From positions 1,290,001 through 1,322,000 of the forward strand of contig CBDCNV010000002.1 of NCBI GenBank assembly GCA_965219535.1: a stretch of DNA of 32,000 nucleotides. The letters run 5' to 3'. A program made the position numbers and the translations under genes. Shown here in pieces: positions 9,051 to 24,665 of this stretch; the stretch's first letter is position 1; every line of letters starts with the position of its first letter. Source of the DNA: Opitutales bacterium. Lineage in GTDB: Bacteria > Verrucomicrobiota > Verrucomicrobiia > Opitutales > PNEW01. The notes beneath the pieces were generated by a model. It did no database searches, was not told the origin of the DNA, and saw nothing but the letters and a program-made list of their open reading frames with translations.

Positions 9051-10640
9051 ATGAGAGACCTGAGACAAGACAGCACACAACTCTACATTGCGGATCAGGT
9101 TCAGTCTTTTGTAGATAATTTAATCCTGGAATCAGTGACCGATGTTACGCGGCGCTGGTATACACCTGAGCGGGTTGGTGACGGACCGGTTCTCGTAAAA
9201 ACTGAATCCTGGGAAGGTTTACCCTATTTCGGGAGCAACACCACGGTGATCCGCGATCCAGACGACGGGCTTTTCAAATGTTGGTATGAGATTATGGTTG
9301 GTGAACCCGATAAAAGCAAAATGGCCCTCGGTATGGAATCCTACGTTTGTTATGCCACGAGTGAAGATGGTATTCACTGGGAAAAGCCAGAGTTCGATGT
9401 CACCATTTTAGAGGGTAGTAAAACAAATATCATTTTGGGCAGCCCTGAATCCGGAGGCGCGCATGCCATGACTGTAATCAGGGACCCTTATCCAAAGTCC
9501 GAAGCGGAACGTTTTAAAGGGATGGTAACGCTTATGTGGGATCAGAACAAAAACCGCCGCATCGTCAGCGCGCACTCGCCGGATGGAATCAACTGGCAGA
9601 TTAGCGACGAGGTTCTTCGTATCGGCATGGCTGGACCAAGGTTGTGTGACGTTCACATCGTAGGCTATGACGAGGACGCCCGTGAATATGTTTGCTACAC
9701 GCGCCATTTCCTCATGACTGCCGGCGCTACGCGCGTACGCTTTGTTCGCGATCAAACCTTCGGTCGACCCTTAGAATTGGATAACTTCGCCACCTATTGC
9801 CAGCGACGCGTGTGGGTTATGCGCAGCTCTGATTTCATTCATTGGAGCGAACCGGTTTTGGTCGCTGCGGTCGATGAGAGCGAAGATAATTTAGATGAAT
9901 CCTTTTATTACATGGTACCCTATAAGGTGGGGACCCAGCATTTGGCGCCGGTGGGCGTGTTCAAATCGGTTGATAACGAGATGGAGGTACAGCTTCTGCA
10001 CAGTCGAGACGGTCTCCGCTGGCAGCGCGCGATGAAACGGCAACCGTTCGTAGCTCATCGCGGCGAAGGTTTCTGGGACGCGCACATGGTATTCATCACG
10101 ACACCCCCGATCGAAGTGGATAATAAATTATATTTCTATTATAGTGGAACGAACTTTCATCACGACTGGTGGCTGGTCGGCTTGCGCGAGGGGATCGACC
10201 ACCCGGAGGCAAAAGATCCATTAGGTTGTGGGAACGCGTTCGCGATGGGTCTGGCAACCATGAGAAAAGACGGATACGCTTCGCTTTACGCCAACCGGTT
10301 TCGCCAGGGTATTGTTATTACACGGAATTTGATTAGTCTTGGAACTCAGCTTATTATCAATGCCCGTTGCGCCCCCGGGGGGTCAATCAGGGTCGAGGTC
10401 CAGAACCGCCTGGATAAAGTCCTTGGAGAATGCAGCATCGATAACAGCGACGCTTTCAGTGGTGACAGCGTCGAACATACGATGACGTGGAAAGGCGATC
10501 CAACAATCCCCGCCGGTCGCGGTCAGGAACTCTACTGGCGCAAGCTCAGATTCCATTTGCGAGACGCCGAATTGTTTTCTTTCCGTTTTACCCATGAGAC
10601 CGAAGAAAGCGATCCCTTCAAGACCGAGAAGGAGTGGTAG
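9051..10640 (+). CDS. Cytoplasmic beta-propeller protein with Asp-box-like motifs; putative glycoside hydrolase of the GH32/43/130-like fold + C-terminal beta-sandwich (paralog 1)
   Basis: The ORF track starts at 8976, but those 25 codons translate the repeat arrays. ATG 9051 aligns with the start of the paralog (MRDLRQDSTQLYIADQVQ). Motifs IRDPDDGLFKCWYE, ATSEDGIHWEKP, SPDGINW, SSDFIHWSEP, SRDGLRW. No signal peptide. Function uncertain. Confidence 0.7.
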   Translation: MRDLRQDSTQLYIADQVQSFVDNLILESVTDVTRRWYTPERVGDGPVLVKTESWEGLPYFGSNTTVIRDPDDGLFKCWYEIMVGEPDKSKMALGMESYVCYATSEDGIHWEKPEFDVTILEGSKTNIILGSPESGGAHAMTVIRDPYPKSEAERFKGMVTLMWDQNKNRRIVSAHSPDGINWQISDEVLRIGMAGPRLCDVHIVGYDEDAREYVCYTRHFLMTAGATRVRFVRDQTFGRPLELDNFATYCQRRVWVMRSSDFIHWSEPVLVAAVDESEDNLDESFYYMVPYKVGTQHLAPVGVFKSVDNEMEVQLLHSRDGLRWQRAMKRQPFVAHRGEGFWDAHMVFITTPPIEVDNKLYFYYSGTNFHHDWWLVGLREGIDHPEAKDPLGCGNAFAMGLATMRKDGYASLYANRFRQGIVITRNLISLGTQLIINARCAPGGSIRVEVQNRLDKVLGECSIDNSDAFSGDSVEHTMTWKGDPTIPAGRGQELYWRKLRFHLRDAELFSFRFTHETEESDPFKTEKEW

Positions 10641-10659
10641 GGGGGGAGCTCACGCGCAT

Positions 10660-10689
10660 GTTAAGTTTTAGGTGTTAGGTTTTAGGTGG
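10660..10689 (+). repeat. TAGGTGT-class half array (left arm only) downstream of stop 10640
   Basis: gttaagttttaggtgttaggttttaggtgg is homologous to 12380-12407, but the complementary right arm is missing. Confidence 0.55.
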
Positions 10690-10728
10690 AGATGACTCGA
10701 GCTTTCTCCTATTATATTGGCGAAGGCG

Positions 10729-10755
10729 TTTGACTTTAGACGTTCAGCTTTCGAC
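10729..10755 (+). promoter_or_regulatory. Leader array (TTTGAC/TTAGAC/TTCAG/TTCGAC) upstream of start 10767
   Basis: gtttgac tttagac gttcag ctttcgac. 11-nt spacer tattcaaatcc to the ATG. Confidence 0.6.
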
Positions 10756-10766
10756 TATTCAAATCC

Positions 10767-12356
10767 ATGAGGGATTTGAAACAGGATAGCACACAACTCT
10801 ACATTGCGGATCAGGTACAGACCTTCGTCGATAACTTAATCCTCGAATCGGTAACCGACGTCACGCGGCGCTGGCACACACCCGAGCGAGTCGGCGACGG
10901 TCCAGTTCTCACAAAGACAGAACCTTGGGAAGGTTTACCCTATTTTAACTGTGCAACCACAATCATCCGCGATCCGGATGACGGCCTATTCAAATGTTGG
11001 TATGAAATCATGGTAGGCGAGCCCGATAAGAGCTATATTGCTCTGGGTATGGATTCCTACTCGTGTGTGGCAACGAGTGAGGACGGTCTTCACTGGGATA
11101 AACCAGCGCTTGATAATTTGATCGTGGATGGGCGCAAAACGAATATAATTCTGGGCAGCCCTGAAACCGGGGGTGCGCATTCTATGACCGTGATCAAGGA
11201 CCCTTATCCAAAGTCGGAGGCGGAGCGCTTCAAGGGGATGCTTACCCTAATGTGGGACCATAACAAGAACCGCAGGATCGTTACCGCCTACTCGCCGGAT
11301 GGAATCAATTGGAAGATAAATGACGATGTTCCACGGATTGGGCTGGCCGGTCCGAGACTTTGCGACGGCCACAACCTCGCCTATGACGAGGATGCCCGTG
11401 AATACGTTTGCTACACGCGCCATTTTCTCATGACTGCAGGAGCTACGCGCGTACGCTTTGTTCGTGATCAAACCTTTGGTCGCCCCTTAGAGCCGGATAA
11501 CTTCGCCACCTATTGCCAGCGACGTGTCTGGGTTATGCGCAGCACTGATTTTATTCATTGGAGCGAACCAGTTCTGATAGCTGCAGCTGATGAAAGTGAA
11601 GATAATCTGGATGAATCTTTTTATTACATGGTTCCTTATAAACTGGGCGGGTTGTATCTTGGACCGACGGGCATGTTCAAGTCGGTAGACAACGAGATAG
11701 AAGTTCAACTTCAATATAGCCGCGACGGACTTCGCTGGCAGCGCGCATTGAAACGACAACCGTTCCTTGCTCATCGCGGTGAAGGATTTTGGGATGCTCA
11801 CCTCGTATATATAAATAACCCGCCGATCGAAGTGGACGATAAACTTTATTTTTATTATAGCGGGAGCAACTTTCATCACGACTGGTGGATGGTCGGATTA
11901 CGGGAAGGGATCGACCATCCTGAGGCAATAGATCCACTGGGCTGTGGGAGTGCTTTTGGAGTGGGGTTGGCAACCTTGAGAAAAGACGGATATGCCTCAC
12001 TTTACGCCAATCAGCACCGGCAAGGTGTTGTCATTACGCGTAACTTTATTAGTCTGGGGACTCAGCTTGTTATCAATGCCTTCTGCGCACCGGGTGGTTC
12101 GATCCGAGTCGAAGTTCAAAACCGTTTGGATAAAGTCCTCGGAGAATGTACCATCGAGAACAGCGACGCTTTCACCGGTGACAGTGTCGAGCATACCATG
12201 ACCTGGAAAGGTGATCCGACGATCCCAGCCGGACGCGGGCAGGAACTCTACTGGCGCAAGCTCAGATTCCATTTGCGCGATGCCGAATTGTTTTCATTTC
12301 GTTTCACCCATGAGACTGAAGATGAATCTCCCTACAAGACGGAAAAAGAGTGGTGA
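10767..12356 (+). CDS. Cytoplasmic beta-propeller GH-like protein (paralog 2 of 9051-10640)
   Basis: 529-aa ORF, collinear with paralog 1 and mostly identical by eye. The two share a 38-nt perfect nucleotide match (10524-10561 = 12240-12277). Confidence 0.7.
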   Translation: MRDLKQDSTQLYIADQVQTFVDNLILESVTDVTRRWHTPERVGDGPVLTKTEPWEGLPYFNCATTIIRDPDDGLFKCWYEIMVGEPDKSYIALGMDSYSCVATSEDGLHWDKPALDNLIVDGRKTNIILGSPETGGAHSMTVIKDPYPKSEAERFKGMLTLMWDHNKNRRIVTAYSPDGINWKINDDVPRIGLAGPRLCDGHNLAYDEDAREYVCYTRHFLMTAGATRVRFVRDQTFGRPLEPDNFATYCQRRVWVMRSTDFIHWSEPVLIAAADESEDNLDESFYYMVPYKLGGLYLGPTGMFKSVDNEIEVQLQYSRDGLRWQRALKRQPFLAHRGEGFWDAHLVYINNPPIEVDDKLYFYYSGSNFHHDWWMVGLREGIDHPEAIDPLGCGSAFGVGLATLRKDGYASLYANQHRQGVVITRNFISLGTQLVINAFCAPGGSIRVEVQNRLDKVLGECTIENSDAFTGDSVEHTMTWKGDPTIPAGRGQELYWRKLRFHLRDAELFSFRFTHETEDESPYKTEKEW

Positions 12357-12378
12357 CGCGTGAAATTGCTTTCACGCG
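12357..12378 (+). terminator. Stem-loop immediately after stop 12356
   Basis: cgcgtgaaa ttgc tttcacgcg: perfect 9-bp stem, 4-nt loop, followed by tgttaagtttta. Confidence 0.5.
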
Positions 12379-12444
12379 TGTTAAGTTTTAGGTGTTAGGT
12401 TTTAGGTTAATCTACTTAACACCTAAAACCTAACACTTAACACC
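12379..12444 (+). terminator. TAGGTGT-class repeat hairpin
   Basis: gtgttaggttttaggt (12392-12407) is perfectly complementary to acctaaaacctaacac (12421-12436), a 16-bp stem with a 13-nt loop. An outer gtgttaa/ttaacac pairing extends it. Confidence 0.5.
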
Positions 12445-13672: not shown

Positions 13673-14407
13673 TTGATTTCACTCATACTTATAACGTCAG
13701 GCATTATTTTTATTGCCTCTATTATTCGGTCTGCACTCGGCTTTGGAGAAGCGCTCATCGCGATGCCGCTCTTAGTGATGTTTCTTGGTTTATCCACCGC
13801 AACTCCGGTAGTCGGCTTCGTGGCGCTGACTTTGAGTGTCATCATCCTACAGAAAGATTGGCGCTTAGCCGATTTTAAATTAACTTGGCGCTTGGTCCTA
13901 ACATCGTTGATGGGGGTTCCGGTCGGTCTGTTAATGCTAAAAGGTGTAGCCGACGAGTTGATGCAGGGCTTACTGGGAATAGTGCTGATTGCTTATGGGT
14001 TGTATAAAATAGTGAGACCTGAACACCTCTTAAAAGAAGATCGCTTCGGGTTGGTTTACCTCTTCGGTTTCCTCTCGGGCATTCTGGGCGGCGCCTACAA
14101 CACTAACGGTCCCCTGGTCGTTATCTACGCCAACCTGCGGCGATGGCCTCCGCAGCAATTTCGCAGTACCATGCAAAGTTATTTTTTGCCGATCGGGTTT
14201 TTTACGATGATTGGACAGGGGGTCGCCGGTTTATGGACGACCAAAGTTATCACGCTCTATCTCAGTTCCCTGCCGTTAATTTTTCTCGCCGTTTACATCG
14301 GAAGAAAAGTCCACATGTCTTTTGCACCCCACCGTTTTGATCGTATCATCAGCACCGTCTTGCTGCTCATGGGACTGTTACTTATAATTCGAATACTGAT
14401 GAATTAG
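13673..14407 (+). CDS. TauE/SafE (DUF81) family anion (sulfite/sulfonate-type) exporter
   Basis: 244-aa polytopic membrane ORF with two G-rich half-repeats (RSALGFGEALIAMPLL, SGILGGAYNTNGPLVV). TTG start at 13673 is tentative; an in-frame TAA at 13655-13657 limits upstream extension. Confidence 0.75.
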   Translation: MISLILITSGIIFIASIIRSALGFGEALIAMPLLVMFLGLSTATPVVGFVALTLSVIILQKDWRLADFKLTWRLVLTSLMGVPVGLLMLKGVADELMQGLLGIVLIAYGLYKIVRPEHLLKEDRFGLVYLFGFLSGILGGAYNTNGPLVVIYANLRRWPPQQFRSTMQSYFLPIGFFTMIGQGVAGLWTTKVITLYLSSLPLIFLAVYIGRKVHMSFAPHRFDRIISTVLLLMGLLLIIRILMN

Positions 14408-14427
14408 AATTCGCATTTTTGCGAATT
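14408..14427 (+). terminator. Small AT-rich hairpin directly after stop 14407
   Basis: aattcgc attttt gcgaatt: 7-bp stem. Confidence 0.3.
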
Positions 14428-14452
14428 GTCAAAAGGTCAAAAAGTCAAAAAG
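14428..14452 (+). repeat. Trailer array (GTCAAAAG class, 8-nt period, 3 units) downstream of TauE-like gene
   Basis: GTC starts at 14428, 14436 and 14444. It lies in a convergent intergenic region with no start codon nearby. Orientation is the reverse complement of the leader arrays relative to the upstream gene. Confidence 0.65.
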
Positions 14453-14509
14453 GAAAACGTGTATCCGCAACTTGTCACGCCATAGCCTCGGCGACGGCGG
14501 ATCCGCAAT

Positions 14510-15373
14510 CTAAATGACCCAGTGCCGGTAAAGTTGCTTAACGTTATCCGGTAGTTTATCGAAGACGTCTTTTCGAATCGGAATCGCGTCGTAGTTCTTG
14601 CCGCCTCTTTCGACCACCATGCGATCGTGATCGGGAGTGCCTTTCATCGTCGGTGTAAGGTTGAGCCACCACGGCGCATAGCGTACGATTAACGCGACCC
14701 GGGATTCGTCACAGATATTCGGTGCCACGGCATGCCACATACGGCTGTCATAAAGCAGTACGCTACCCTCCGGACCCAAGGCCTGGCGCTCGTCGGGATT
14801 TGGTGCGTCGAGATCAATTCCCTCCATCTCTCCTGTTGCCGGGTTGTTTGTCAGGCGATGGCTTTTGGGAAGAATAAATGTGGCTCCGTTTTCTTTCGTG
14901 AAGTGAGTCAACATCCAGATCGATGATAGGTGCATGATCATATTGCCGTAGGGCGCTTTGACATGCGTGGAGTTAGTCCCGTTATAGGGCCAGTCGGCGT
15001 GCCAATAGCCGCGGTCACCGCCGGGTTGGTTGATCACCGTGTCCGTACACGAAATCCGTGCATAGTCGCCGAAAAAATATTCTACTGTTCCGAGTATGCG
15101 TTCATCGACAAGGTAGGGCGCAAAGCACTGCGTGGCATTGATCACCTGCTTGAGCACCGCGACCCCCGGTGTGCCAATGCGATGGCCGCGTGACCGCGTT
15201 TTCGCCAGCTCTGCTTCCGCTTCTTCATTATGAGCGTGTTGCGCGGCCATGACTTCAGAACGAATGGCGTCCACCTTATCCGCTGGAATTACCCCCTCGA
15301 CGACGCAATAACCCTCTCGCTCGATTTGAGAAACAATAGCGTCCACCGGCATCTGTTTAATCGAAGTTTCCAT
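14510..15373 (-). CDS. Phytanoyl-CoA dioxygenase (PhyH) family Fe(II)/2-oxoglutarate oxygenase
   Basis: 287-aa ORF. YWHADWPY (HxD), GATFILPKSH, SRMWHAVAPN, RVALIVRY. Confidence 0.8.
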   Translation of the reverse strand: METSIKQMPVDAIVSQIEREGYCVVEGVIPADKVDAIRSEVMAAQHAHNEEAEAELAKTRSRGHRIGTPGVAVLKQVINATQCFAPYLVDERILGTVEYFFGDYARISCTDTVINQPGGDRGYWHADWPYNGTNSTHVKAPYGNMIMHLSSIWMLTHFTKENGATFILPKSHRLTNNPATGEMEGIDLDAPNPDERQALGPEGSVLLYDSRMWHAVAPNICDESRVALIVRYAPWWLNLTPTMKGTPDHDRMVVERGGKNYDAIPIRKDVFDKLPDNVKQLYRHWVI

Positions 15374-15576
15374 TACATATTAATCGGTAGAAAAATAGTA
15401 TCGGAATTTATAAGAAAAACAACGATTTACTGAAAAACATTTAAAGCCTCGATGGGTTCCACCTTATCTTTTCTTCTACTCTCATTATTTCTTTCTTGTG
15501 TCTCTCGTGCCTTTGGAAGATGTTGTCTCGCTGTTTTATAGTAAGATACTTCGGTAAACGATAACACGAAATCGAG

Positions 15577-16674
15577 ATGAAATTCAGATCATTTTTAATA
15601 GCATTAAGCGCATTATCCCTATCCATGGGATCGATTACCAGCTACGCTGATGATGAAAGTCTGGGGATGTATATGCCTGACGGTCAGATCACCTCACGGG
15701 TAGTCAGGGTTTATCTCTATAATTGGGATTTGTCCTATGAGATGAATCCCCGTTTGGTCCTGGGAAAGCTGGGTAAGGCGGATAGTGAAAATGTCAGCGA
15801 TCGACTGACGGATAATGTTCAGTACTCCGCAATCGAAGTAATACCCGACCAGCGTTGGACGGAAACGAGAGAAGGAGAATCCTTTGAGCGGCAATCGCAC
15901 GGAACGGTGATATTGTTTGATCTATCAAAACAGAGTGTTCCGTTTTATAAACCGGGACAACGTTTCCTTCCGATTCTCCTATGGAATGAAAATGTGCAAC
16001 CGGGAAGAAAAGTAGACACAAAATCCCAAATCCAGGTGATCAGCAAAGAGGATGTCTATTTACGTGGTCGAGCGGGTATACTTATTTGGACTGTTCTCGT
16101 CCTTTTGATTTTTCTGGGAATTGTTTACCTGATCACAATGCGTGCAGAAAGGGGGATGCTAGGTATACTTTGTACCGCGAATGGCCGTATCTCTGTCGGG
16201 TTGACACAAATGGCCCTTTGGACACTTGTCGTCGGCGCGATGGTCCTTGGGTTTGGTTTGATGCAGCTGACGGTGCCAGAGATTCCTCTTACCTTGATCC
16301 TATTAATCGGAATGTCCTACGCCACGAGTGCAATAAGCCATTATCAAACGTATCGCTTGCAGCGTGTAGTGGCATCAGCAAGTCAAGAGCGTGAACCCCG
16401 TTTAAGTGACCTCGTATCGATACCCACTCTTATCACAACAGATAAAGGCGACGCGAAGGAAACAGAAGACCAGTCTCTCGCGAAAGCACAATTGCTGTTT
16501 TGGACCGTTTTCACCTTAGTCATTATAGCAATGAAGACTATTGCTGAAGGTCAATTATGGGCGATCCCGGAGACCTTGGTGTTTTTAATGGGATTCAGTC
16601 AGATTGGCTATTTAGCCCGTAAAGAAATGTCATTGTGGGTCGCACGAAAAGACACCATTCCAGATACTCAATAA
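15577..16674 (+). CDS. Membrane protein of unknown function (signal peptide, ~150-aa extracytoplasmic domain, 4-5 TM segments)
   Basis: 365-aa ORF. MKFRSFLIALSALSLSMGSITSYA signal-like N-terminus. Hydrophobic segments ILIWTVLVLLIFLGIVYLI, LWTLVVGAMVLGFGLM, LTLILLIGMSYA, LLFWTVFTLVIIA, LVFLMGFSQIGYL. No family recognised. Confidence 0.7.
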   Translation: MKFRSFLIALSALSLSMGSITSYADDESLGMYMPDGQITSRVVRVYLYNWDLSYEMNPRLVLGKLGKADSENVSDRLTDNVQYSAIEVIPDQRWTETREGESFERQSHGTVILFDLSKQSVPFYKPGQRFLPILLWNENVQPGRKVDTKSQIQVISKEDVYLRGRAGILIWTVLVLLIFLGIVYLITMRAERGMLGILCTANGRISVGLTQMALWTLVVGAMVLGFGLMQLTVPEIPLTLILLIGMSYATSAISHYQTYRLQRVVASASQEREPRLSDLVSIPTLITTDKGDAKETEDQSLAKAQLLFWTVFTLVIIAMKTIAEGQLWAIPETLVFLMGFSQIGYLARKEMSLWVARKDTIPDTQ

Positions 16675-16679
16675 AACAA

Positions 16680-16738
16680 GAAAACCGGGAAGGCTGGAAA
16701 CCAGATAACCAGAAGACCGGAAAACCGGAAAACCAGAC
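16680..16738 (+). repeat. 8-nt-period array, GGAAAACC class (7 units)
   Basis: gaaaaccg ggaaggct ggaaacca gataacca gaagaccg gaaaaccg gaaaacca, starting 6 nt after stop 16674. Confidence 0.7.
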
Positions 16739-16793
16739 TAAGAGAAAGAGGATATGGAAGAAGTTTAATACCCAAATTCGCATTCAAGCATTT

Positions 16794-16827
16794 CCTTTTT
16801 GACCTTTTGACCTTTTGACTTTTTGAC
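16794..16827 (+). promoter_or_regulatory. Leader array (CTTTTGAC class, exact 8-nt period, 4 units) upstream of start 16837
   Basis: GAC ends at 16803, 16811, 16819 and 16827. 9-nt spacer ttcttattg to the ATG. Confidence 0.75.
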
Positions 16828-16836
16828 TTCTTATTG

Positions 16837-17610
16837 ATGCATGAAGGAAAACTTTTAAGCGACAAGCTGAAATCCGGCGATATCTGCCTGGGCATTTTCA
16901 ATACCTCGAGTGATCCCTGTATCACTGAGCTACTCAGTGGCTCAGGGTACGACTTTATTATTATCGATGCTGAGCACGGTGCACTTAATATCGAGACCGT
17001 ACAGGCTAATATCATGGCGACGATGGGTAGTAACACGGTTCCGCTGGTTCGCGTGCCGATCAATGATGAAGCTTATATTAAGCGTTTGCTTGACGCAGGA
17101 GTGGGTGGGATTCTTGTGCCCCAGGTTCGCAACGCTGAGGATGTTAAGCAAGCGGTTGCTGCCTGTCTTTACCCGCCGGAAGGTATTCGCGGGTTCGGAC
17201 CGCGTCGACCTGCCAACTACGAGCGTAATTATGCCGAGGTTGCCGAATCGGCTAACGATCATATTGTAGCCTGGGTCCAGATCGAAAACATGGGAGCTGT
17301 AAATGAGATCGAAGAGATCGTCCGCACTCCGCATCTTTCTGGAGTTATTATTGGTCCCAATGACCTCGCGGCATCGCTGGGGGTAATTTTTCAGAAAGAA
17401 CATCCGACGGTTCTTGAAGCCATCCAGAAAGTGAAAAGTGCCGCACACGAGGCAGGCATGCCCGTGGGAATGGCGGGGACTAAGGATCCGGAGGGTGCTA
17501 TCGGATGGATCAAGGACGGTTTTCAATTCGCGACGCTGAATAATACAAATGGCCTCCTCATGCGGGCCAGCCAGGATTTCATTGCCAGGGTGAAAGAGGG
17601 AATCGCTTAA
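16837..17610 (+). CDS. HpcH/HpaI-family class II aldolase (2-keto-3-deoxy-sugar-acid aldolase, YfaU/LRA4-like)
   Basis: ORF track starts at TTG 16834; ATG 16837 preferred. Motifs FIIIDAEHG, LVRVP, PQVRNAEDV, IENMGAV, IGPNDLA. Confidence 0.85.
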   Translation: MHEGKLLSDKLKSGDICLGIFNTSSDPCITELLSGSGYDFIIIDAEHGALNIETVQANIMATMGSNTVPLVRVPINDEAYIKRLLDAGVGGILVPQVRNAEDVKQAVAACLYPPEGIRGFGPRRPANYERNYAEVAESANDHIVAWVQIENMGAVNEIEEIVRTPHLSGVIIGPNDLAASLGVIFQKEHPTVLEAIQKVKSAAHEAGMPVGMAGTKDPEGAIGWIKDGFQFATLNNTNGLLMRASQDFIARVKEGIA

Positions 17611-17612
17611 TC

Positions 17613-17647
17613 AATTGCCGATTGCCGATATGCGATTTCAGATTGAA
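17613..17647 (+). repeat. 7-nt-period array, GATTGCS class (5 units), starting 2 nt after stop 17610
   Basis: aattgcc gattgcc gatatgc gatttca gattgaa. Confidence 0.6.
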
Positions 17648-17708
17648 CCGTGAGAGGATATCCTGATGGTTTTTTACATAATTACATTTCCTTATTTACG
17701 CAGATCCA

Positions 17709-17739
17709 TTTTGACATTCTGACCTTTTGACATTTTGAC
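17709..17739 (+). promoter_or_regulatory. Leader array (TTTTGAC/TTCTGAC, exact 8-nt period, 4 units) upstream of start 17750
   Basis: GAC ends at 17715, 17723, 17731 and 17739. 10-nt spacer tcttccttac to GTG 17750. Confidence 0.7.
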
Positions 17740-17749
17740 TCTTCCTTAC

Positions 17750-18913
17750 GTGAAGATTAAAGAAATCAGGACTGTAGATTTAAAAATACCGGTCGCTCAG
17801 CCAAAAACAAAACCGAGCCGCCCTGCCTGGAGAATGTCAGCGCCTCGTAATCTACCTCTTAAAAAGTATCCTGAATTTTCCCAGAGCGATAATGCTGTTC
17901 CCGGCATGGATGAGAACCCGGTCTGGGTCCAGGTAGTCGCCGAGAACGGCGAATGGGGACTTGGCTTTTCAGGCTTTGGCGCAGTGACCGCAGTGGTAAT
18001 CGACGGCGTCTTTGCCCCTTTGTTAAAGGGACGTGACTGCATGGCGATTGAGTTTTTAAACGATTTGATGTGGAGGTCTATTCTGCGTCTGGGTTCCGAG
18101 GGGCATGCGGCGATTGCGCAAAGTGGAGTAGACCTGGCATTGTGGGACCTCAAAGGGAAATTACTGGATCAACCCGTCTACAGCTTGCTCGGGGGACCCA
18201 GCCGGGATAAAGTGCGTCTGTATGCGACGACTGACGACCTCGATTGGGCGCAGGAGCTGGGCTTCACCGCATTCAAAGTGAGCAATCCCGCTCATTATGA
18301 CAGCGGTATTGAGGGACTCAACAAGCTTGAGGAAAAAGTAGCGCGTGCCCGAGAGACTGTGGGTGTGGATGCCGAACTGATGCTCAATCCGGTAATGGCT
18401 TACAACGTGGAATTCGCGATCCAGGTGGCTGAGCGCCTGCGGCCCTACCGACTGCGCTGGCTGGAGGAGCCACTGAAGCCAATTGATTTGCGCGGTCATA
18501 TCGAACTGAAAAAGGCTGTTCCTTGGATGCCGATTGCCACCGGTGAGGACCATCACGGGCGGCACGCGTTTCTCGAGTTAATTGAAAATCGGTGTGTGGA
18601 TGTGGTTCAACCCGACATCAACTGGTGCGGTGGGTTGTCGGAAGCGGTTAAAATTTATGCCATCACGGAAGCTGCAGGATTGCAGACGAGTCCACATAAG
18701 GCTGGCTCGACGCCTTTTGGTCAGCACTTCGCCATCGCCATGCCCGAATCATCATTGGCTGAGTTCTGGCTCGAGACTGACCCTGGAATTCCTTTGGACG
18801 AGTTAAACCCCATTCCCGGTATGGCTGTCCCCAGGGACGGCTATGTCGTGCCATCACAGGCCCCTGGATTCGGTATGGAAATTGCAGAAGACTGGATTCT
18901 ACCGAGAGACTGA
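17750..18913 (+). CDS. Enolase-superfamily (mandelate racemase/muconate-lactonizing, RhamD-like) sugar-acid dehydratase homolog
   Basis: The ORF-track TTG 17735 lies inside the repeat array. GTG 17750 gives MKIKEIRTVDL, matching paralog MKIKSIRAVNV (25862). Motifs DLALWDLKGK, RLRWLEEP, ATGEDH, QPDINWCGGLSE, PHKAG. Asn replaces the expected first Mg ligand (LMLN versus LMLD). Confidence 0.8.
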   Translation: MKIKEIRTVDLKIPVAQPKTKPSRPAWRMSAPRNLPLKKYPEFSQSDNAVPGMDENPVWVQVVAENGEWGLGFSGFGAVTAVVIDGVFAPLLKGRDCMAIEFLNDLMWRSILRLGSEGHAAIAQSGVDLALWDLKGKLLDQPVYSLLGGPSRDKVRLYATTDDLDWAQELGFTAFKVSNPAHYDSGIEGLNKLEEKVARARETVGVDAELMLNPVMAYNVEFAIQVAERLRPYRLRWLEEPLKPIDLRGHIELKKAVPWMPIATGEDHHGRHAFLELIENRCVDVVQPDINWCGGLSEAVKIYAITEAAGLQTSPHKAGSTPFGQHFAIAMPESSLAEFWLETDPGIPLDELNPIPGMAVPRDGYVVPSQAPGFGMEIAEDWILPRD

Positions 18914-18972
18914 AAATAAGCTTTATGATTTTCTGATTGCTCGAATGATAAAATCAAATTGAGAATGGAAAA

Positions 18973-19824
18973 ATGAAACGATTAGAAAACAAAGTTGCTA
19001 TTATTACGGGTGCGTCACTAGGGCTAGGTAAAGCGGCCGCCCTGCTTTTCGCTAAAGAGGGTGCTTCTGTCGTCATCTGTGATCGCGGACGAACGCCGGA
19101 GAATGCTGAAAAAGTGCTCAAGGAAGCGGAAGGTCTCAGTGGTGAAATTGCTTACAAAAAATGTGATGTCCTAATCAAGGACGATATTGTCGCCCTCGTT
19201 AAATTTACTTTGGAGCGCTTTGGAAGAATTGATGTCATGGTTAACAATGCCATCGTCGATACGAATATGGGGATGTTGGAAGAGATTGAATTGGATGATT
19301 GGGAGGACACGATTTTTTGTCATATGACCGCGCCTCTAATCTTTTGTCAGGAGGTGATGCCAACAATGATCAAGCAGGGAAGTGGGAGTATTATTAATGT
19401 GTCTTCACATATGGCGCTTGTCGGTAGCAGCAATATTTCCTCCTATGGCCCAGCCAAGGCGGGCATGATCAATTTTACCAAATCGATAGCGGTTACTTAC
19501 GGCCCCTACGGGATTCGTGCGAACTCACTTACGCCCGCCCGCATGCTTACAGAAAAAAAACATGATATGCTCAGGGGTAGTCCATCGTCAGTCAGAATAC
19601 AGAAAACTGCGTATCCCACGGGCAGTCCAGCTCAACCCGAACAGGTTGCTGATGCCATGCTCTTTTTGGCTTCCGATGAATCAGCTGCAGTTACGGGACA
19701 TAATCTGATCACCGACCGGGGCCTCACCGCTCAGTGTCCCTCTGTCCCTGTTGGCCGAGGTGAAGCGAATTTAAAAGAGGAACTGGCCGCGCAGGGATCG
19801 GAGTGGTTAAAGAGTGAGTTATGA
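18973..19824 (+). CDS. Short-chain dehydrogenase/reductase (SDR)
   Basis: 283-aa ORF. TGASLGLGKAAA (TGxxxGxG), NNAIV, S...YGPAKAG (YxxxK). The 59-nt gap from the upstream gene has no arrays, so co-transcription is likely. Confidence 0.9.
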   Translation: MKRLENKVAIITGASLGLGKAAALLFAKEGASVVICDRGRTPENAEKVLKEAEGLSGEIAYKKCDVLIKDDIVALVKFTLERFGRIDVMVNNAIVDTNMGMLEEIELDDWEDTIFCHMTAPLIFCQEVMPTMIKQGSGSIINVSSHMALVGSSNISSYGPAKAGMINFTKSIAVTYGPYGIRANSLTPARMLTEKKHDMLRGSPSSVRIQKTAYPTGSPAQPEQVADAMLFLASDESAAVTGHNLITDRGLTAQCPSVPVGRGEANLKEELAAQGSEWLKSEL

Positions 19825-19834
19825 TGTCAATGAG

Positions 19835-19874
19835 GATATGCGTGAAAGCGAAAATGTGTAAATGCGATAATGGG
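19835..19874. repeat. 8-nt-period AATGCG-class array after stop 19824
   Basis: gatatgcg tgaaagcg aaaatgtg taaatgcg ataatggg. Confidence 0.55.
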
Positions 19875-19924
19875 GATTGATAGTTGATTAATCCTAACGG
19901 TTATATCTTTCTCTCTTGCAACTG

Positions 19925-19966
19925 CTGAACCCTGAACCCTGAACCCTGAACCCCGAACCCTGAACT
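19925..19966 (+). promoter_or_regulatory. Heptamer tandem array (CTGAACC)x6 ending 3 nt before ATG 19970
   Basis: ctgaacc x4, ccgaacc, ctgaact, then atc ATG. Confidence 0.75.
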
Positions 19967-19969
19967 ATC

Positions 19970-21109
19970 ATGCCTGACACACCTTCAAAACAGAATCGCT
20001 ACCCGTTGCGCGCGGTGCCTGGATACTTCGGTAGCCATCCCGGTATCCAAATCGGCGCCACAACAACACCCCTGGCCGATGACGAGGAATTGCAGATCTT
20101 TCAACAACTTGGCGTTGAATGGGTGATGCTTAAAGTCCCAGATGAATCGCTGCACAGTGTGGCCAATTACAAGAGTTGGAAAGAACGGTTCGCCCGCTAC
20201 GACATGCAAATCTACCGTATCGGGAGCCACTGGCACAACATGGCGGCAGTTACGCTCGGCCTCAAAGACTGTGATCGCATGACGAATGATTACATAACTC
20301 ATATCCGCAATCTCAGTGCTGCCGGTATCTACTACACGACCTACGCGCACATGGCTAACGGTATCTGGTCCTCTGGTAAGGCCACCGGACGCGGCGGCAG
20401 CCAGGCACGCACGCTGGACCTCGATGTCGCCCGTGCAAAGTGGGAAGACTGGGGCTTCGAAGGAGAGGTTCCCAATGGGGTCCGTGGACAGTGGGATCAC
20501 TGGAGGCTCGAAGGAGAGGTACCGCATGATCGGGAATTCACGGAAGATGAATTGTGGGACAACTACGAACGATTCATGCGCAAGGTGGTGCCAGCCGCGG
20601 AAGAAGCGGGTGTCTACATCGGTATGCATCCCGACGATCCGCCAGTCTACACCCTCGGCGGTGTGCCGCGCTGCATTCTGGGTAGCTTCGCCGGTTATCA
20701 GCGTGCACTTGAGATTGCCGACAGCCCAAATATCGGGGTTTGCCTCTGCGTCGGCTGCTGGCTTGAAGGCGGTGCGAAAGGAATGGGAGTCGACGTCCTG
20801 GAAGCAATCCGAATATTTGGGCAGCAGGGTAAGATTTTTAAGGTCCACTTCCGCAATATCACTAATCCGATGCCCGAACCCTGGCGGGAGACGATGATGG
20901 ATGAGGGTTACATGGACATGACGAAGGTAATGGCTGCACTGCAGGAAGTCGAGTATGACGGCTGCGTCATTCCCGATCACATTCCCGAGATGAGCAGCCC
21001 AAAGTGCGGAGAGAATGGAGGCACTCAGGCTGGACTTGGATTTTCTATCGGCTATATGCGCGCCATTGCAAATGCGGATCTGCGAGATGTCGGGCAAAGC
21101 CCTCGGTAG
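19970..21109 (+). CDS. UxuA (mannonate dehydratase)-family / xylose-isomerase-like TIM-barrel sugar-acid dehydratase (paralog 1)
   Basis: 379-aa ORF. VVPAAEEAGVYIGMHPDDPP..GVPRC, FKVHFRN and CVIPDHIPEM parallel E. coli UxuA segments [32 protein letters not shown] and IPMRPDHGHQM (from memory). Confidence 0.75.
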   Translation: MPDTPSKQNRYPLRAVPGYFGSHPGIQIGATTTPLADDEELQIFQQLGVEWVMLKVPDESLHSVANYKSWKERFARYDMQIYRIGSHWHNMAAVTLGLKDCDRMTNDYITHIRNLSAAGIYYTTYAHMANGIWSSGKATGRGGSQARTLDLDVARAKWEDWGFEGEVPNGVRGQWDHWRLEGEVPHDREFTEDELWDNYERFMRKVVPAAEEAGVYIGMHPDDPPVYTLGGVPRCILGSFAGYQRALEIADSPNIGVCLCVGCWLEGGAKGMGVDVLEAIRIFGQQGKIFKVHFRNITNPMPEPWRETMMDEGYMDMTKVMAALQEVEYDGCVIPDHIPEMSSPKCGENGGTQAGLGFSIGYMRAIANADLRDVGQSPR

Positions 21110-21110
21110 C

Positions 21111-21166
21111 GATTGCAGAATGCGGATTGAGGAATATCGATTATCGATCGTCGATTGCAGATTGAT
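21111..21166 (+). repeat. 7-nt-period array, GATTGCR class (8 units), starting 1 nt after stop 21109
   Basis: gattgca gaatgcg gattgag gaatatc gattatc gatcgtc gattgca gattgat. Confidence 0.7.
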
Positions 21167-21225
21167 CCCTATGGATACCCTCTCATTCATCCAGCCTTCC
21201 ATACTACCAATGTTTCAGCTATCAT

Positions 21226-21281
21226 CTGAACCCTGAACCCTGAACCCTGAACCCTGAACCCTGAACCCTGAACCCTGAACC
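21226..21281 (+). promoter_or_regulatory. Perfect heptamer tandem array (CTGAACC)x8, 34 nt upstream of ATG 21316
   Basis: 56 nt of uninterrupted ctgaacc units. Confidence 0.8.
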
Positions 21282-21315
21282 CCGCCTGTCCTGAGCTTAG
21301 CCGAAGGAAATACTC

Positions 21316-22386
21316 ATGCATGACTCATTATCTCAAGAAAAACAATACCCTTTGCGCGCAGTGCCGGGTTTTTTCGGCAGTCATCCTGGTATCCAGATCG
21401 GGACTACGGTGTCACCCTTGGTTGACGATACTGAATTACAGCAGCTTCAGCAGTTGGGCGTCGAATGGGTGATGCTTAATGTTCCCGATCAGTCGCTGCA
21501 CTGCGTAGCCAATTATAAGAGCTGGATTGAGCGGTTCGCTCGTTACGATATCCAAATCTACAGTATCCTTAACCACGACGTGCACAATATGGAAGCAGTC
21601 ACGCTCAATCTTGAGGACTGCGATCGCAAGACTGAAGAGTTCAACATTTTCATCCGTAATCTCGGTGCCGCCGGGATCTACTACAAGACCTACGCACACA
21701 TGGCTACCGGAATCTGGTCATCCGACTCTACCACTGGACGTGGTGGTATAAAAGCGCGCACCCTGGATCTAAGCAATGCGCGGGGGTACTGGGACGAGAA
21801 GGAATTTGAAGGTGAACTGCCTCACGGACGGATCTACACCGAAGACGAGTTGTGGGACAATTATGAGAGGTTTATGCGCAAGATAGTGCCAGTCGCAGAA
21901 GAGGCTGGTGTATTTATCGGTATGCATCCCGACGACCCCCCGGTTTACGCACTTGGCGGTGTGCCTCGCTGTATATTGGGTAACTTCGCCGGTTATCAGC
22001 GTGCGCTGGAGATCGCTGACAGCCCAAACATTGGCGTTTGCCTTTGCGTCGGTTGCTGGCTCGAAGGAGGCGAGAAAGGAATGGGTGTCGATGTGCTCGA
22101 AGCGATTCATGCCTTCGGAAAGCAAGGCAAGCTCTTTAAGGTCCACTTCCGCAATGTCACCAATCCGATGCCCGAACCCTGGCGCGAGACCTTGATGGAT
22201 GAGGGTTACATGGACATGACGAAGGTAATGGCTGCACTGCAGGAGGTCGAGTTTGACGGCTGCATCATTCCCGATCACATCCCCAAGATGAGTGGCGATG
22301 GGGGGTTACAGGCCGGACTCGGTTATTCGATCGGTTATATGCGGGCGCTGGCGAATGCTGATTTCGGAATGCGGATTGCGGATTGA
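21316..22386 (+). CDS. UxuA-family sugar-acid dehydratase (paralog 2)
   Basis: 356-aa ORF collinear with 19970-21109. It lacks the 17-aa internal duplication of paralog 1. Its last codons (FGMRIAD stop) are encoded by GATTGCR-array units. Confidence 0.75.
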   Translation: MHDSLSQEKQYPLRAVPGFFGSHPGIQIGTTVSPLVDDTELQQLQQLGVEWVMLNVPDQSLHCVANYKSWIERFARYDIQIYSILNHDVHNMEAVTLNLEDCDRKTEEFNIFIRNLGAAGIYYKTYAHMATGIWSSDSTTGRGGIKARTLDLSNARGYWDEKEFEGELPHGRIYTEDELWDNYERFMRKIVPVAEEAGVFIGMHPDDPPVYALGGVPRCILGNFAGYQRALEIADSPNIGVCLCVGCWLEGGEKGMGVDVLEAIHAFGKQGKLFKVHFRNVTNPMPEPWRETLMDEGYMDMTKVMAALQEVEFDGCIIPDHIPKMSGDGGLQAGLGYSIGYMRALANADFGMRIAD

Positions 22387-22387
22387 T
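22360..22387 (+). repeat. GATTGCR-class array (4 units) overlapping the 3' end and stop codon of 21316-22386
   Basis: gatttcg gaatgcg gattgcg gattgat. The TGA stop (22384-22386) lies inside the last unit. Confidence 0.65.
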
Positions 22388-22446
22388 ACCGGGCAAATTT
22401 ATCCTGGCTGTTTCCATATTCACACTTACTCGCATTTATCATTAAG

Positions 22447-22468
22447 CCTTCGACCTTCGACTTTTGAC
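22447..22468 (+). promoter_or_regulatory. Leader-type array (CTTCGAC CTTCGAC TTTTGAC), 50 nt upstream of ATG 22519
   Basis: GAC ends at 22454, 22461 and 22468 (7-nt period). Confidence 0.5.
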
Positions 22469-22518
22469 ATTCAGCTACAACCTGCCTATGATTAATGTTA
22501 AATCAACCTGGGTAAATT

Positions 22519-23367
22519 ATGGAATCTAAAATTGAAGCACGAATAGTTGACACGGACTGGGCCCGATTAACTTTGGGCGAACGTATAGAGCATCTTGAAG
22601 TAGAAGGTTACCTTGTAATTCCGGATTTACTCAGTCCGAAACACATTGAAAAACTTAAAGCTGAAACAAAAAACCTGAAAACCCGTGCCGCAGATTATAG
22701 CGATAAAAAGCAGGCGGCTATCGAAGAGATGACTTATGCTGGTGGTGAAATTTCAAAGTTGATCGCCAACCCTCCACTGATTGCCTTTCTCAAAGAACTT
22801 TGTGGTGATGAACTCATAATGATGAGTTATACCTATGTGAGAACGGATCCTGGATTTCCCGGTATCAGTTTACATTGTGACGGTCAGCCCTGGAGCTCAA
22901 AAATATTTGGCTATAAGTTCAGTTGTCCTCGGCTGGTTCGCGTTCTTTATTATCTTGATGACTTGACTCCGGAAGTTTCACCTTTTCGCGTCTTACCACG
23001 TTCGCATCTCAGTTTTCACAACGAAGGCAATCCCTACCTGCGATACGAAGAGCACCCCGAACAGGCGATGGTTACCTGCAAGGCCGGCTCAGCCGTCCTT
23101 ATCAATCAGAATGTATTCCATGGCAATTTTCCCAATGTGGGAGACCGTTCGCGTGAAATGCTGGCCATATCCTACCGCCCTTCATGGGCCGGGCCGGCCG
23201 GTGAAGTGGAACCGAGAGATCTGGAAAAAGTTGCAGAACTTCCCCCTGAAGTACAGGCACTTTTAAGAGACCCGAATACACGTATCTGGATGCCTGACAA
23301 CCCTAACAAACCGGACCATATGTCTCGAGAAGCTCCCGGTATTAATTCCAGTCGTTGGGATCGGTAG
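22519..23367 (+). CDS. Phytanoyl-CoA dioxygenase (PhyH) family Fe(II)/2-oxoglutarate oxygenase
   Basis: 282-aa ORF. SLHCDGQPW (HxD), FRVLPRSH, NVFHGNFPN, REMLAISYRP. Confidence 0.8.
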   Translation: MESKIEARIVDTDWARLTLGERIEHLEVEGYLVIPDLLSPKHIEKLKAETKNLKTRAADYSDKKQAAIEEMTYAGGEISKLIANPPLIAFLKELCGDELIMMSYTYVRTDPGFPGISLHCDGQPWSSKIFGYKFSCPRLVRVLYYLDDLTPEVSPFRVLPRSHLSFHNEGNPYLRYEEHPEQAMVTCKAGSAVLINQNVFHGNFPNVGDRSREMLAISYRPSWAGPAGEVEPRDLEKVAELPPEVQALLRDPNTRIWMPDNPNKPDHMSREAPGINSSRWDR

Positions 23368-23411
23368 TCGAGTGATACAGGATGGTATTGTAGCCGGAAA
23401 GAATCTTCTTT

Positions 23412-23430
23412 ACCTAAAACTTAACGCGCG
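23412..23430. repeat. Partial inverted copy of the TAGGTGT-class element
   Basis: acctaaaacttaacgcgcg resembles the reverse complement of cacgcgtgttaagtttt (12374-12390 region). Confidence 0.35.
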
Positions 23431-23445
23431 TCAGCGCCCATCTCG

Positions 23446-23474
23446 CTTTCGACCTTAGACCTTCGACTTTCGAC
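23446..23474 (-). repeat. Trailer array (GTCGAAAG class in gene orientation, 7-nt period, 4 units) ending 2 nt from stop codon 23477-23479
   Basis: + strand ctttcgac cttagac cttcgac tttcgac. GAC ends at 23453, 23460, 23467 and 23474. Confidence 0.65.
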
Positions 23475-23476
23475 TC

Positions 23477-24481
23477 CTAAATCTTCTTTATCGCTTCATT
23501 TCGACGGCTCAGCATTTGTTTCTCAAAACTTTGAGGATATCGCTCGGGAAGGTTGGAGATTGCGTTCAGGCGCTGAAGTACACTTTCATCCAGTTGCCAG
23601 CCAACGGCGCCAAGATTTTTTTCTAACTGTGCTACGGTTCGGGGGCCCACAATTGAGGAGGTAATTGCAGGTTGATCAAGTGCCCAACGTAGTGCGACTT
23701 GATCCGCGCTTCGCCCCAACTCATTTGAAACTTCAAGCAAAACGTTAAGTATCTTATCGGCGTGCACTGAAAAATAATCTTTAGGTAAATTCCGACCACT
23801 TTCCGATTCGACACCCGCGTCAAGATCTCCCGGCTTATATTTGCCCGTCAAAAAACCCCCGGCAAGCGGGCTCCAAATCACCACTCCCAAATCGTGGTAC
23901 TGGCAAAGGGGAATCAATTCCAGTTCTATGTCTCTAACGACAAGGCTGTACTGGGGTTGATAGCATTCAAAACGATTAAGGTCATGGGCGTCACTTATAC
24001 CCAGGGCGGTTGCTAAACGCCATGCTTCATAGTTGCTGCAGGCCAGGTAGCGTACTTTCCCCTCGTGAACCAGATCATCCAAAGCATAAAGCATCTCTTC
24101 AAGCGGAGTTTGAACGTCTACGTGATGGATAAAATAAATATCTATATGATCCGTTTGCAGACGCTTGAGACTGGCTTCAATCGCGCGCATGATATAGACA
24201 CGCGACATTCCGGAATCGTTAGGCCCCGATCCCATGGGGTTAAAAAATTTTGTCGCAAGAATGATTTCCTCTCGGCGATCTTTAAGTGCTCTCCCTAAAA
24301 TCTTTTCAGATTCTGCATTCGCGTATGCGTCGGCGGTATCGATAAAATTAATACCGGCCTCAAAACTCATATTGAGAATTCTGTTCGCTTCCGCTTCATC
24401 GGTCGTGCCTCCAAACAACATCGTGCCGAGGCATAGCTCTGAAACTTTAAGTCCCGTCCGTCCCATTCTGCGATATTTCAT
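23477..24481 (-). CDS. Aldo/keto reductase (AKR) family oxidoreductase
   Basis: The ORF-track TTG 24496 lies inside the repeat array. ATG 24481 gives MKYRRMGRTGLKVSELCLGTMLFGG, the canonical AKR N-terminus. Confidence 0.88.
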   Translation of the reverse strand: MKYRRMGRTGLKVSELCLGTMLFGGTTDEAEANRILNMSFEAGINFIDTADAYANAESEKILGRALKDRREEIILATKFFNPMGSGPNDSGMSRVYIMRAIEASLKRLQTDHIDIYFIHHVDVQTPLEEMLYALDDLVHEGKVRYLACSNYEAWRLATALGISDAHDLNRFECYQPQYSLVVRDIELELIPLCQYHDLGVVIWSPLAGGFLTGKYKPGDLDAGVESESGRNLPKDYFSVHADKILNVLLEVSNELGRSADQVALRWALDQPAITSSIVGPRTVAQLEKNLGAVGWQLDESVLQRLNAISNLPERYPQSFEKQMLSRRNEAIKKI

Positions 24482-24491
24482 AGGGTGATTA

Positions 24492-24524
24492 GTCAAAAGG
24501 TCAAAAGGTCAAAAAGTCAAAAAG
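24492..24524 (-). promoter_or_regulatory. Leader array (CTTTTGAC class, 8-nt period, 4 units) upstream of start 24481
   Basis: GTC starts at 24492, 24500, 24508 and 24516. 10-nt spacer taatcaccct to the ATG. Confidence 0.75.
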
Positions 24525-24572
24525 GATATGTGTAAATGTGTACATGCGTGTATGTGAGGATGCAGAAATCAT
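24525..24572. repeat. 8-nt-period ATGYG-class array (6 units)
   Basis: gatatgtg taaatgtg tacatgcg tgtatgtg aggatgca gaaatcat. Homologous unit-by-unit to 25905-25952 and 7649-7704. Confidence 0.6.
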
Positions 24573-24590
24573 TTGAATTAACTTTTATTG

Positions 24591-24625: not shown

Positions 24626-24665
24626 CCGCGGCCGCTGGATGACCGCAAATTAATAATCGATACAC

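Follow-up and report, generated by a model that had tools for sequence, protein, structure and literature searches.

The TAACTGA heptamer repeats of marine Beggiatoaceae and of some Cyanobacteria and Bacteroidetes are known from 169 sets of 2–6 copies. They are mostly forward, intergenic and just upstream of start codons that lack a Shine–Dalgarno (SD) sequence, with 12 sets directed toward stop codons, and a translational role via S1, Csp or CsrA-like binders has been proposed, unproven (MacGregor, 2015; PMC4679880). Here, we describe repeat arrays in a 32 000-nucleotide stretch of the genome of an Opitutales bacterium (contig CBDCNV010000002.1, positions 1 290 001–1 322 000; hereafter the window, numbered from its first letter). 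The arrays consist of tandem 8-mers (NTTTTGAC) or 7-mers (YTTCGAC) and end in GAC close to the edges of open reading frames (ORFs). The TAACTGA repeats are their closest precedent, and the present arrays may be a variant of that unexplained kind. In both cases short direct repeats lie ahead of starts, SD sequences are few and the downstream genes are functionally unrelated and include housekeeping genes; we found 34 sense-oriented start-facing arrays of 3–5 units, ahead of SD-less, unrelated genes that include essential ones. The present arrays differ in their unit and its period (8 or 7), in their phylum [the Planctomycetes–Verrucomicrobia–Chlamydiae (PVC) bacteria], in a spacer of 7–12 nt rather than mostly 1 nt, in a stop-facing class that nearly equals the start-facing class and in showing, by comparison between species, signs of selection on cores, unit number and spacing.

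Other systems share some of these properties. In Cyanobacteria, short tandemly repeated repetitive (STRR) sequences form 7-nt tandem repeat families that occupy the intergenic DNA of one lineage (discussed in PMC4679880); their arrays are often long, with no known fixed polar distance to ORF edges, whereas those described here have 3–5 units. Operators of ribbon–helix–helix (RHH) proteins, such as the omega-repressor heptads and the 8-bp metboxes of MetJ, comprise 2–10 tandem units of 7 or 8 bp that each bind one dimer. The present arrays agree with these in period and copy number. However, RHH operators are promoter sites with palindromic or orientation-tolerant units and a regulator gene nearby, none of which was found for the present arrays: promoter overlap is generally not seen, and no regulator is recognizable in the window. 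The triplet-repeat RNA operators of TRAP and HutP, like CsrA sites, overlap ribosome-binding sites. The invariant GAC triplet, the pyrimidine spacers of 4–5 nt and the position of the last repeat where the ribosome binds resemble this layout, which could, by analogy, permit translational control by an oligomeric protein; in contrast to TRAP and HutP, the entire TTTTGAC core is conserved here and the repeats number 3–4 instead of 6–11. The regulators that act at the TTTTGAT heptads of Vibrio cholerae ctx are ToxR, ToxT and H-NS. According to a report on the ctxAB promoter, these heptads occur in 3–8 copies and recruit regulators, and their copy number tunes expression (bioRxiv 10.1101/2021.05.14.444153). 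The heptad is nearly identical to TTTTGAC, tandem and upstream of a gene; it lies upstream of and overlaps the −35 element of one promoter, whereas the present arrays mostly lie 7–12 nt from the starts of many genes and are also found at 3′ ends.

Start-facing arrays in the window

A preliminary description of the window had reported eight (YTTTTGAC) or (YTTCGAC) arrays 9–11 nt before start codons. All eight are present on the coding strand, each ahead of a validated start and at the reported distance, and their spacers match the letters quoted and are essentially free of G (1 of 77 nt), as had been stated. The 14-nt two-unit pattern TTTGACYTTTTGAC, with up to two mismatches, matches the window 28 times compared with 0.62 expected (none of 100 shuffles reaches 28), and the arrays were also reported independently by Tandem Repeats Finder. 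Chaining of GAC triplets at 7 or 8 nt with T-rich spacers yields 14 arrays; the degenerate array at 10728–10755 and the decayed array at 7956–7980 lie outside this set and were found by direct reading. Seven arrays were located beyond the original eight, two of which face a start at a longer distance and five of which face no start. A start-facing array is present on 10 of the 22 window genes examined. The arrays ahead of starts are as follows.

5989–6020, − strand: (YTTTTGAC)4; 9 nt to the DUF2961 ATG at 5979, inside the 69-nt gap after the SSF stop.
7615–7646, − strand: (YTTTTGAC)4; 9 nt to the SSF symporter TTG at 7605.
7956–7980, + strand: decayed (TTTGAC, ATTCGAT, TCGATG, TTCGAC); 34 nt to the TauD GTG at 8015.
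9012–9040, + strand: four units of mixed 7/8-nt period (CTTTTGAC, ATTAGAC, CTTCGAC, TTTTGAC); 10 nt to the unk529a ATG at 9051.
10728–10755, + strand: degenerate 7-mers (GTTTGAC, TTTAGAC, GTTCAGC, TTTCGAC); 11 nt to the unk529b ATG at 10767.
16796–16827, + strand: (YTTTTGAC)4 (TTTTTGAC, CTTTTGAC, CTTTTGAC, TTTTTGAC), followed by ttcttattg; 9 nt to the ATG at 16837 of an HpcH-family aldolase.
17708–17739, + strand: (NTTYTGAC)4; 10 nt to the MR_MLE1 GTG at 17750.
22447–22468, + strand: CCTTCGAC, CTTCGAC, TTTTGAC; 50 nt to the PhyH2 ATG.
24492–24523, − strand: (YTTTTGAC)4; 10 nt to the aldo-keto reductase (AKR) ATG at 24481.
25872–25903, − strand: (YTTTTGAC)4; 9 nt to the MR_MLE2 ATG at 25862.
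28817–28840, + strand: three degenerate units (CTCTTGAC, TTTATGAC, TATCTGAC); 15 nt to the unk559 ATG at 28856.

The third unit of the array at 10728 ends in AGC instead of GAC. The array between the SSF and DUF2961 genes is probably intercistronic.

The start codons are supported by N-terminal comparisons. MR_MLE1 read from GTG 17750 aligns with its paralogue MR_MLE2 from residue 1 (MKIKEIR versus MKIKSIR), and the N-termini of orthologues in the Opitutales metagenome-assembled genome (MAG) OY829953.1 agree with the start codons of the window. The public gene call for MR_MLE1 (locus L107) has 359 residues and begins 28 codons downstream of the paralogue-supported GTG (387 residues). Non-ATG starts beside arrays are probably mis-annotated, and the case of MR_MLE1 illustrates how gene callers misplace starts in such positions. 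A Logan contig (L108) that begins inside an array was read as an assembly break at the repeat and not as a transcription start site (TSS). The genes unk529a and unk529b (9051–12356) are tandem paralogues with 85% protein identity, and divergence is greater in their 7-mer arrays than in the coding sequence; the two genes match no Pfam family, and a faint GH130-like (β-1,2-mannobiose phosphorylase) match is all that was obtained.

The best anti-SD duplex between −20 and −4 has an energy of +0.4 to +0.7 kcal mol−1 for the eight listed arrays and −1.5 kcal mol−1 for the unk559 array, calculated with the canonical sequence ACCUCCUUA, which may differ from the 16S tail of the host. No array gene has an SD sequence, in agreement with the preliminary description. 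This absence does not set array genes apart, however, because among 12 further genes that were scored just one attains −5 kcal mol−1, and SD-like pairing is lacking for nearly all genes of the window. The pattern is consistent with reports of Verrucomicrobia that are scarce in SD sequences while retaining CCUCC (PMC10783764).

Polarity, spacing and conservation among relatives

A motif scan of 185 579 species genomes was carried out with three perfect units as the query. Among the matches listed, there is a concentration in two Opitutales MAGs, OY829953.1 (at least 27 loci, covering ∼1.86–4.45 Mb of the 4.49 Mb chromosome) and CBDANS010000007.1, and further matches are in Phycisphaerae, Planctomycetaceae and Bacteroidota MAGs. 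Polarity and spacing were evaluated in the window and 31 loci from the two Opitutales MAGs (∼280 kb), which contain 88 arrays, 73 of them cleanly intergenic. In 56 of these intergenic arrays, an ORF edge is found no more than 25 nt from the GAC end, compared with 12.9 ± 3.0 at random placement (maximum of 26 in 10 000 trials); the T-rich 5′ end is this close to an edge in a single array. Thirty-four arrays are sense-oriented and face a start, whereas 28 point at the stop of an opposite-strand gene; about half of the latter are antisense to both neighbouring genes.

The spacers of the start-facing arrays (n = 33) are 7 nt (six cases), 8 nt (five), 9 nt (ten), 10 nt (five), 11 nt (four), 12 nt (one) and 15 nt (two) in length. 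The phase-locking at 9–11 nt that had been proposed thus holds for the original eight arrays, and in the wider set becomes a range of 7–12 nt (31 of 33) with a mode of 9 nt. This constraint on the distance to the start upholds the statement that the arrays are not neutral microsatellites. The last GAC is followed by T in 32 of 33 cases and the next base is A in 23; the spacers contain 6% G, and positions −1 and −2 are mostly C. In 242 units, T occupies positions 2–5 in 97–99% of cases, whereas position 1 varies freely (T 46%, C 40%, A 12%). Copy number is 3–5 in all 88 arrays, usually 3–4, and 27 of the 34 start-facing arrays have four units; other 7/8-mer arrays in those loci reach 14–17 copies. 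One identical 32-mer is found at six loci. Among the matches listed, those in Phycisphaerae and Planctomycetaceae have the form (KTTTYGAC)n followed by gtttcc, 6–9 nt from several starts or 3–21 nt from convergent stops, and those in Bacteroidota are longer and not near starts. The arrays are thus a lineage-wide polar repeat family at gene edges in Opitutales, with variants in Phycisphaerae and Planctomycetaceae. The 4227 covariance models of Rfam gave no match at the gathering score or at E ≤ 1, and literature queries with the motif strings returned primer noise alone.

The intergenic landscape of the window and the 31 loci is unusually repeat-rich for a bacterium, with 138 period-7/8 tandem arrays of many sequence families in ∼280 kb, or about one per 2 kb. 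Whether 7/8-mer arrays in general turn their pyrimidine-rich strand toward the ORF was also considered, and for the other families the tendency is weak (32 versus 19). The ORF-facing strand shows a modest general depletion of G that remains after the arrays are masked.

The five arrays of the window that face no start are positioned 0–82 nt past the 3′ end of an opposite-strand gene, at which the GAC end points in all five (TauE, AKR, PQQ-propeller, unk559 and isopropylmalate/tartrate-dehydrogenase-like).

14428–14451, − strand: three 8-mers; GAC end 20 nt from the TauE (+) stop, with the hairpin AATTCGCAnnnnTGCGAATT between.
23446–23474, + strand: four 7-mers; GAC end 2 nt from the AKR (−) stop.
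28597–28632, − strand: five units (four 7-mers and one 8-mer); 10 nt from the PQQ-propeller (+) stop.
30618–30646, − strand: four units, antisense to unk559 (+); 82 nt past the unk559 stop.
31968–31999, − strand: four 8-mers at the C terminus of the isopropylmalate/tartrate-dehydrogenase-like ORF.

The last of these ORFs (30859–32000) has no stop before the end of the window and reads through the array as SKSQKVKKSK, a Lys/Ser-rich tail; profile homology stops at about residue 368. The A-rich strand of an array contains no stop codon in any frame, and the T-rich strand contains TGA in all three frames at three or more units. A role as a three-frame stop was set aside, as it fails for the YTTCGAC 7-mers and offers no clear benefit.

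The window region 13970–29955 is syntenic with OY829953.1 at 86–94% nucleotide identity, which places the source of the window in the same genus as this MAG; a window protein is also present on ENA assembly ERZ25067264. The HpcH, MR_MLE2 and AKR arrays are identical to their orthologous counterparts at 31–32 of 32 positions and retain their spacer length, while the DNA just upstream is unalignable. The HpcH array and spacer agree at 40 of 41 positions, the MR_MLE2 array and spacer are identical with the upstream sequence replaced, and the AKR array agrees at 31 of 32 positions, again with the upstream sequence replaced. The orthologue has a partly decayed MR_MLE1 array and lacks a counterpart of the degenerate unk559 array (28817–28840). 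All four stop-facing arrays of the syntenic part are absent; those at 14428, 23446 and 28597 each have no counterpart. Two genes of 73% identity, one from each MAG (L025 and L066), share the four TTTTGAC cores, the unit number, the following TA and the 8-nt spacer length, but not the start codon (ATG versus GTG), the letters of the spacer or, in three units, the base at position 1. Cores, unit number and spacer length therefore appear to be under purifying selection. The possibility of a phase-variable simple sequence repeat was rejected, since there are only 3–5 units and the unit number of four is constant between orthologues at 73–94% identity.

Candidate functions of the arrays

The observation is real and highly non-random, and a leader or translation role is plausible. 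We tentatively interpret the start-proximal arrays as transcribed, sequence-specific leader platforms for SD-independent initiation within a wider polar ORF-edge repeat family, an interpretation that we prefer to its rivals but regard as possible rather than probable. At least the last unit would be part of the mRNA leader, because no sigma-70 promoter fits in 7–12 nt and the TSS must accordingly fall inside the array or upstream of it, and the constrained distance to the start codon suggests ribosome geometry over transcription. The geometry thus points to transcription of the arrays, the spacing constraint to an action in translation and the invariant cores to binding by a specific factor. 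The fixed unit number, the free first position of the unit, the features peculiar to start-facing arrays, the SD-scarce background and the TAACTGA precedent also favour this interpretation. A start-facing array would occupy approximately −8 to −45 of the leader, the site of the SD and standby sites elsewhere. Its RNA, (CUUUUGAC)4, would be a single-stranded pyrimidine-rich docking platform for a reader of repeated UUUUGAC, putatively S1 of the ribosome or else an oligomeric RNA-binding protein, through which SD-independent initiation of translation would be set or repressed. The evolutionarily labile stop-facing copies may be by-products of the spread of the module or may have a second role.

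Several results weigh against this interpretation. Of the 62 ORF-adjacent arrays, about 28 point to the stop of a convergent gene, 0–25 nt off, where there is no translation start. Given these stop-facing arrays, the repeat module is broader than a translation signal. The preliminary description had offered an SD-independent leader or enhancer, or a binding-protein site; a leader or translation role stays plausible, but a restriction to starts does not, and neither hypothesis predicts the stop-facing polarity. The 31 Opitutales loci were picked because they bear arrays. Genes with and without an array are alike in how accessible their initiation region is predicted to be, so that an 'unstructured landing pad' alone was rejected. 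At least some copies act on DNA, as the PhyH2 array unit forms a good −35 box in both species, and the conservation could partly be owing to concerted evolution of a dispersed repeat, given the identical 32-mer found six times. Our confidence is kept low because this model does not account for the stop-facing class and concerted evolution could mimic selection.

An alternative, doubtful though credible, is an intergenic repeat family of selfish or structural nature. Like STRR heptamers, repetitive extragenic palindromes (REP), bacterial interspersed mosaic elements (BIME) or the termini of miniature inverted-repeat transposable elements (MITE), such repeats would grow directionally until coding constraint is met, abutting stops at 0–25 nt and starts at ∼7 nt or more, with incidental effects on expression. 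This would account for the single polarity with which both starts and stops are abutted, and it is favoured by the density and variety of the 138 period-7/8 arrays, by the gain or loss of stop-facing arrays between close relatives (four of four missing in the orthologue), by the repeated 32-mer, by entire intergenic regions that are ordered, mirror-symmetric repeat blocks with MITE-like elements and by the G depletion that persists after masking. It is less easily reconciled with a copy number limited to 3–5, unlike that of the other arrays of those loci, with cores, unit number and spacer length kept in the 73%-identical pair despite scrambled flanks, or with the start-facing signature of TA after GAC and 7–12 nt spacing. 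No target-site duplication or transposase link was found at the arrays examined, and the motif is nearly missing from viral contigs (8 of 2.9 million). In comparison with REP, BIME and MITE, the units are direct repeats and not palindromes, and no target-site duplication is seen at presence/absence sites; on the other side, the 32-mer recurs six times and some intergenic regions carry opposed arrays.

It is unlikely that the arrays are double-stranded DNA sites, either operators for a global protein that reads 7–8 bp tandem units or stacked −35/UP-like elements. The period of 7–8 bp and the 3–4 units are like those of RHH operators, and the mirror-symmetric placement at both gene ends suits a boundary role. 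The unit includes TTGAC, the core of a −35 element, and at PhyH2 the TTGACA of the last unit is followed after 17 nt by TATGAT (11 of 12 positions matching), with TTGACA-16-TATAAT in the orthologue; both are strong sigma-70-type promoters. In the same direction point the ctx heptads (bioRxiv 10.1101/2021.05.14.444153) and the use of −35/TATAAT promoters by the verrucomicrobium Akkermansia (PMC4782308). With spacers of 7–12 nt, however, every register would set the TSS at or past the start codon. Leaderless expression with the array as the promoter was rejected for this class: no −10/−35 pair fits, the spacers lack a TAnnnT with its T at −7 and few of the hexamers that follow GAC have a final T. 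The sequence upstream of the arrays shows no enrichment of sigma-70-like promoters (mean score of 10.8 versus 11.0 in shuffles), operators normally need no ±2 nt spacing to a start codon and strict strand polarity is atypical of operator arrays. The window genes include no recognizable transcription regulator, a point on which the preliminary description was correct.

RNA processing or termination signals directed toward the ORF (RNase E-type sites, Rho loading or the U-tract of a terminator or attenuator), separating units and blocking antisense read-in, are very unlikely. They would account for the orientation of the T-rich strand, which faces ORFs on both sides; small GC hairpins precede some arrays, and the stretch from a stop-facing array to the gene end is enriched in stable hairpins (mean of −7.3 versus −3.95 kcal mol−1, p = 0.006). 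The sequence GAC↓UUUU would fit the RNase E pattern RN↓WUU, a match as tentative as that to Rho motifs. Over the 36 nt upstream of the arrays, structure does not exceed that of random intergenic windows (−2.85 and −3.95 versus −3.95 kcal mol−1). Since hairpins are not enriched upstream of either array class, the order of hairpin then U-tract is not found and the arrays are not terminator U-tracts. A terminator 9 nt before a start leaves no room for a promoter and would silence the gene, and the antisense position of about half of the stop-facing arrays relative to both neighbours also argues against such signals. Pairing of 5′ (YUUUUGAC)n with 3′ (GUCAAAAR)n of one mRNA, for circularization, stabilization or an RNase III processing stem, is barely credible. 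The two orientations show perfect complementarity and both flank six complete genes, but co-occurrence does not exceed chance (6/29/21/122, odds ratio 1.2, p = 0.79) and most array genes carry one array alone. Extremely improbable, too, is the regulon confined to the sugar-acid catabolic island of the window that had been proposed from the first sequence reading, notwithstanding the 10 of 22 genes with a start-facing array and the single pathway theme. In OY829953.1, the genes directly downstream of arrays encode MutS, a class II aminoacyl-tRNA synthetase, a GCV_T-family protein, dienelactone hydrolase, a sigma-54 activator, an M19 dipeptidase, a SASA esterase and PhyH-family enzymes, and the arrays are spread over the chromosome interval given above (among the matches listed). 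The island regulon is wrong because the same arrays precede housekeeping genes in this relative.

The leader-platform interpretation can be extended. PVC bacteria that are short of SD sequences might use the UUUUGAC repeat, in 3–4 copies ∼9 nt before the start, as a protein-read substitute, with the module also marking 3′ gene edges as an 'ORF-edge code' and with either a platform protein of the ribosome or a dedicated, oligomeric RNA binder as the reader; we regard this extension as rather improbable. Pairing of UUUCGAC to 16S rRNA 1494–1500 (GUCGUAA) was judged to be a coincidence, because this segment is paired within helix 44. Bacteroidota, many Cyanobacteria and some Verrucomicrobia choose start codons without SD pairing. 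The arrays offer a discrete, length-limited, sequence-specific candidate start signal that is conserved across species, occurs in several PVC lineages and is easily mutated. The stop-facing class makes a simple 'leader enhancer' reading incomplete, and suggests a general gene-boundary function or directional repeat spread, neither of which was found for PVC genomes in the literature searched.

Surrounding repeats

Other repeats also adjoin the genes of the window. Degenerate (NNCGCATN)n 8-mers lie directly upstream of most start-facing arrays [e.g. 7650–7700(−), 8960–9010(+), 24524–24560(−) and 25904–25945(−)], and their reverse complement follows several stops (8894–8940, 19835–19880 and 21110–21135); this placement therefore describes an ordered, mirror-symmetric intergenic repeat 'grammar'. 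A second repeat family that abuts a start codon is CTGAACC: (CTGAACC)6 at 19925–19965 ends 4 nt before the UxuA1 ATG and (CTGAACC)8 at 21226–21282 lies 33 nt before the UxuA2 ATG, and the family is degenerate in the orthologue. The (AAACCAGA/GGAAAACC) 8-mers at 16698–16737, after the unk365 stop, number five units compared with ∼12 in the OY829953.1 orthologue, a variable copy number in contrast to that of the TTTTGAC arrays.

Palindromes and hairpins are also frequent. Some arrays are followed by short palindromes that hold the start codon (e.g. TATCCATCGATGGATA and TATGACCCATGGGGTCATA) or by a hairpin and U5 ending at the ATG, and many stop-facing arrays adjoin hairpins with the stop codon in the loop; such features were noted at L013:5640–5680 and 6650–6685, L025 (reverse complement) 444–470 and 1572–1590, and L049:1191–1215 and 2368–2390. 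Long hairpins of opposed heptamers (TTAGGTG/GTGTTAG versus CACCTAA/TAACACC) are located directly after stops at 1975–2040, 12378–12444 and 10659–10688; they resemble terminators built of tandem repeats, and the copy at 10659 is one-armed. A MITE-like element with termini TTGTCATTGCGA...TCGCAATGACAA is present in four intergenic regions (∼1715–1955, 7727–7890, 28697–28775 and 30712–30822), with related copies in the OY829953.1 loci L059 and L076. Finally, copies of a REP-like palindrome, AACGCGCTAGGGACAGCGCGTT, are scattered through the Opitutales genome, occurring in L025 at ∼955–1045 and in an orthologue insertion opposite window position 15455.

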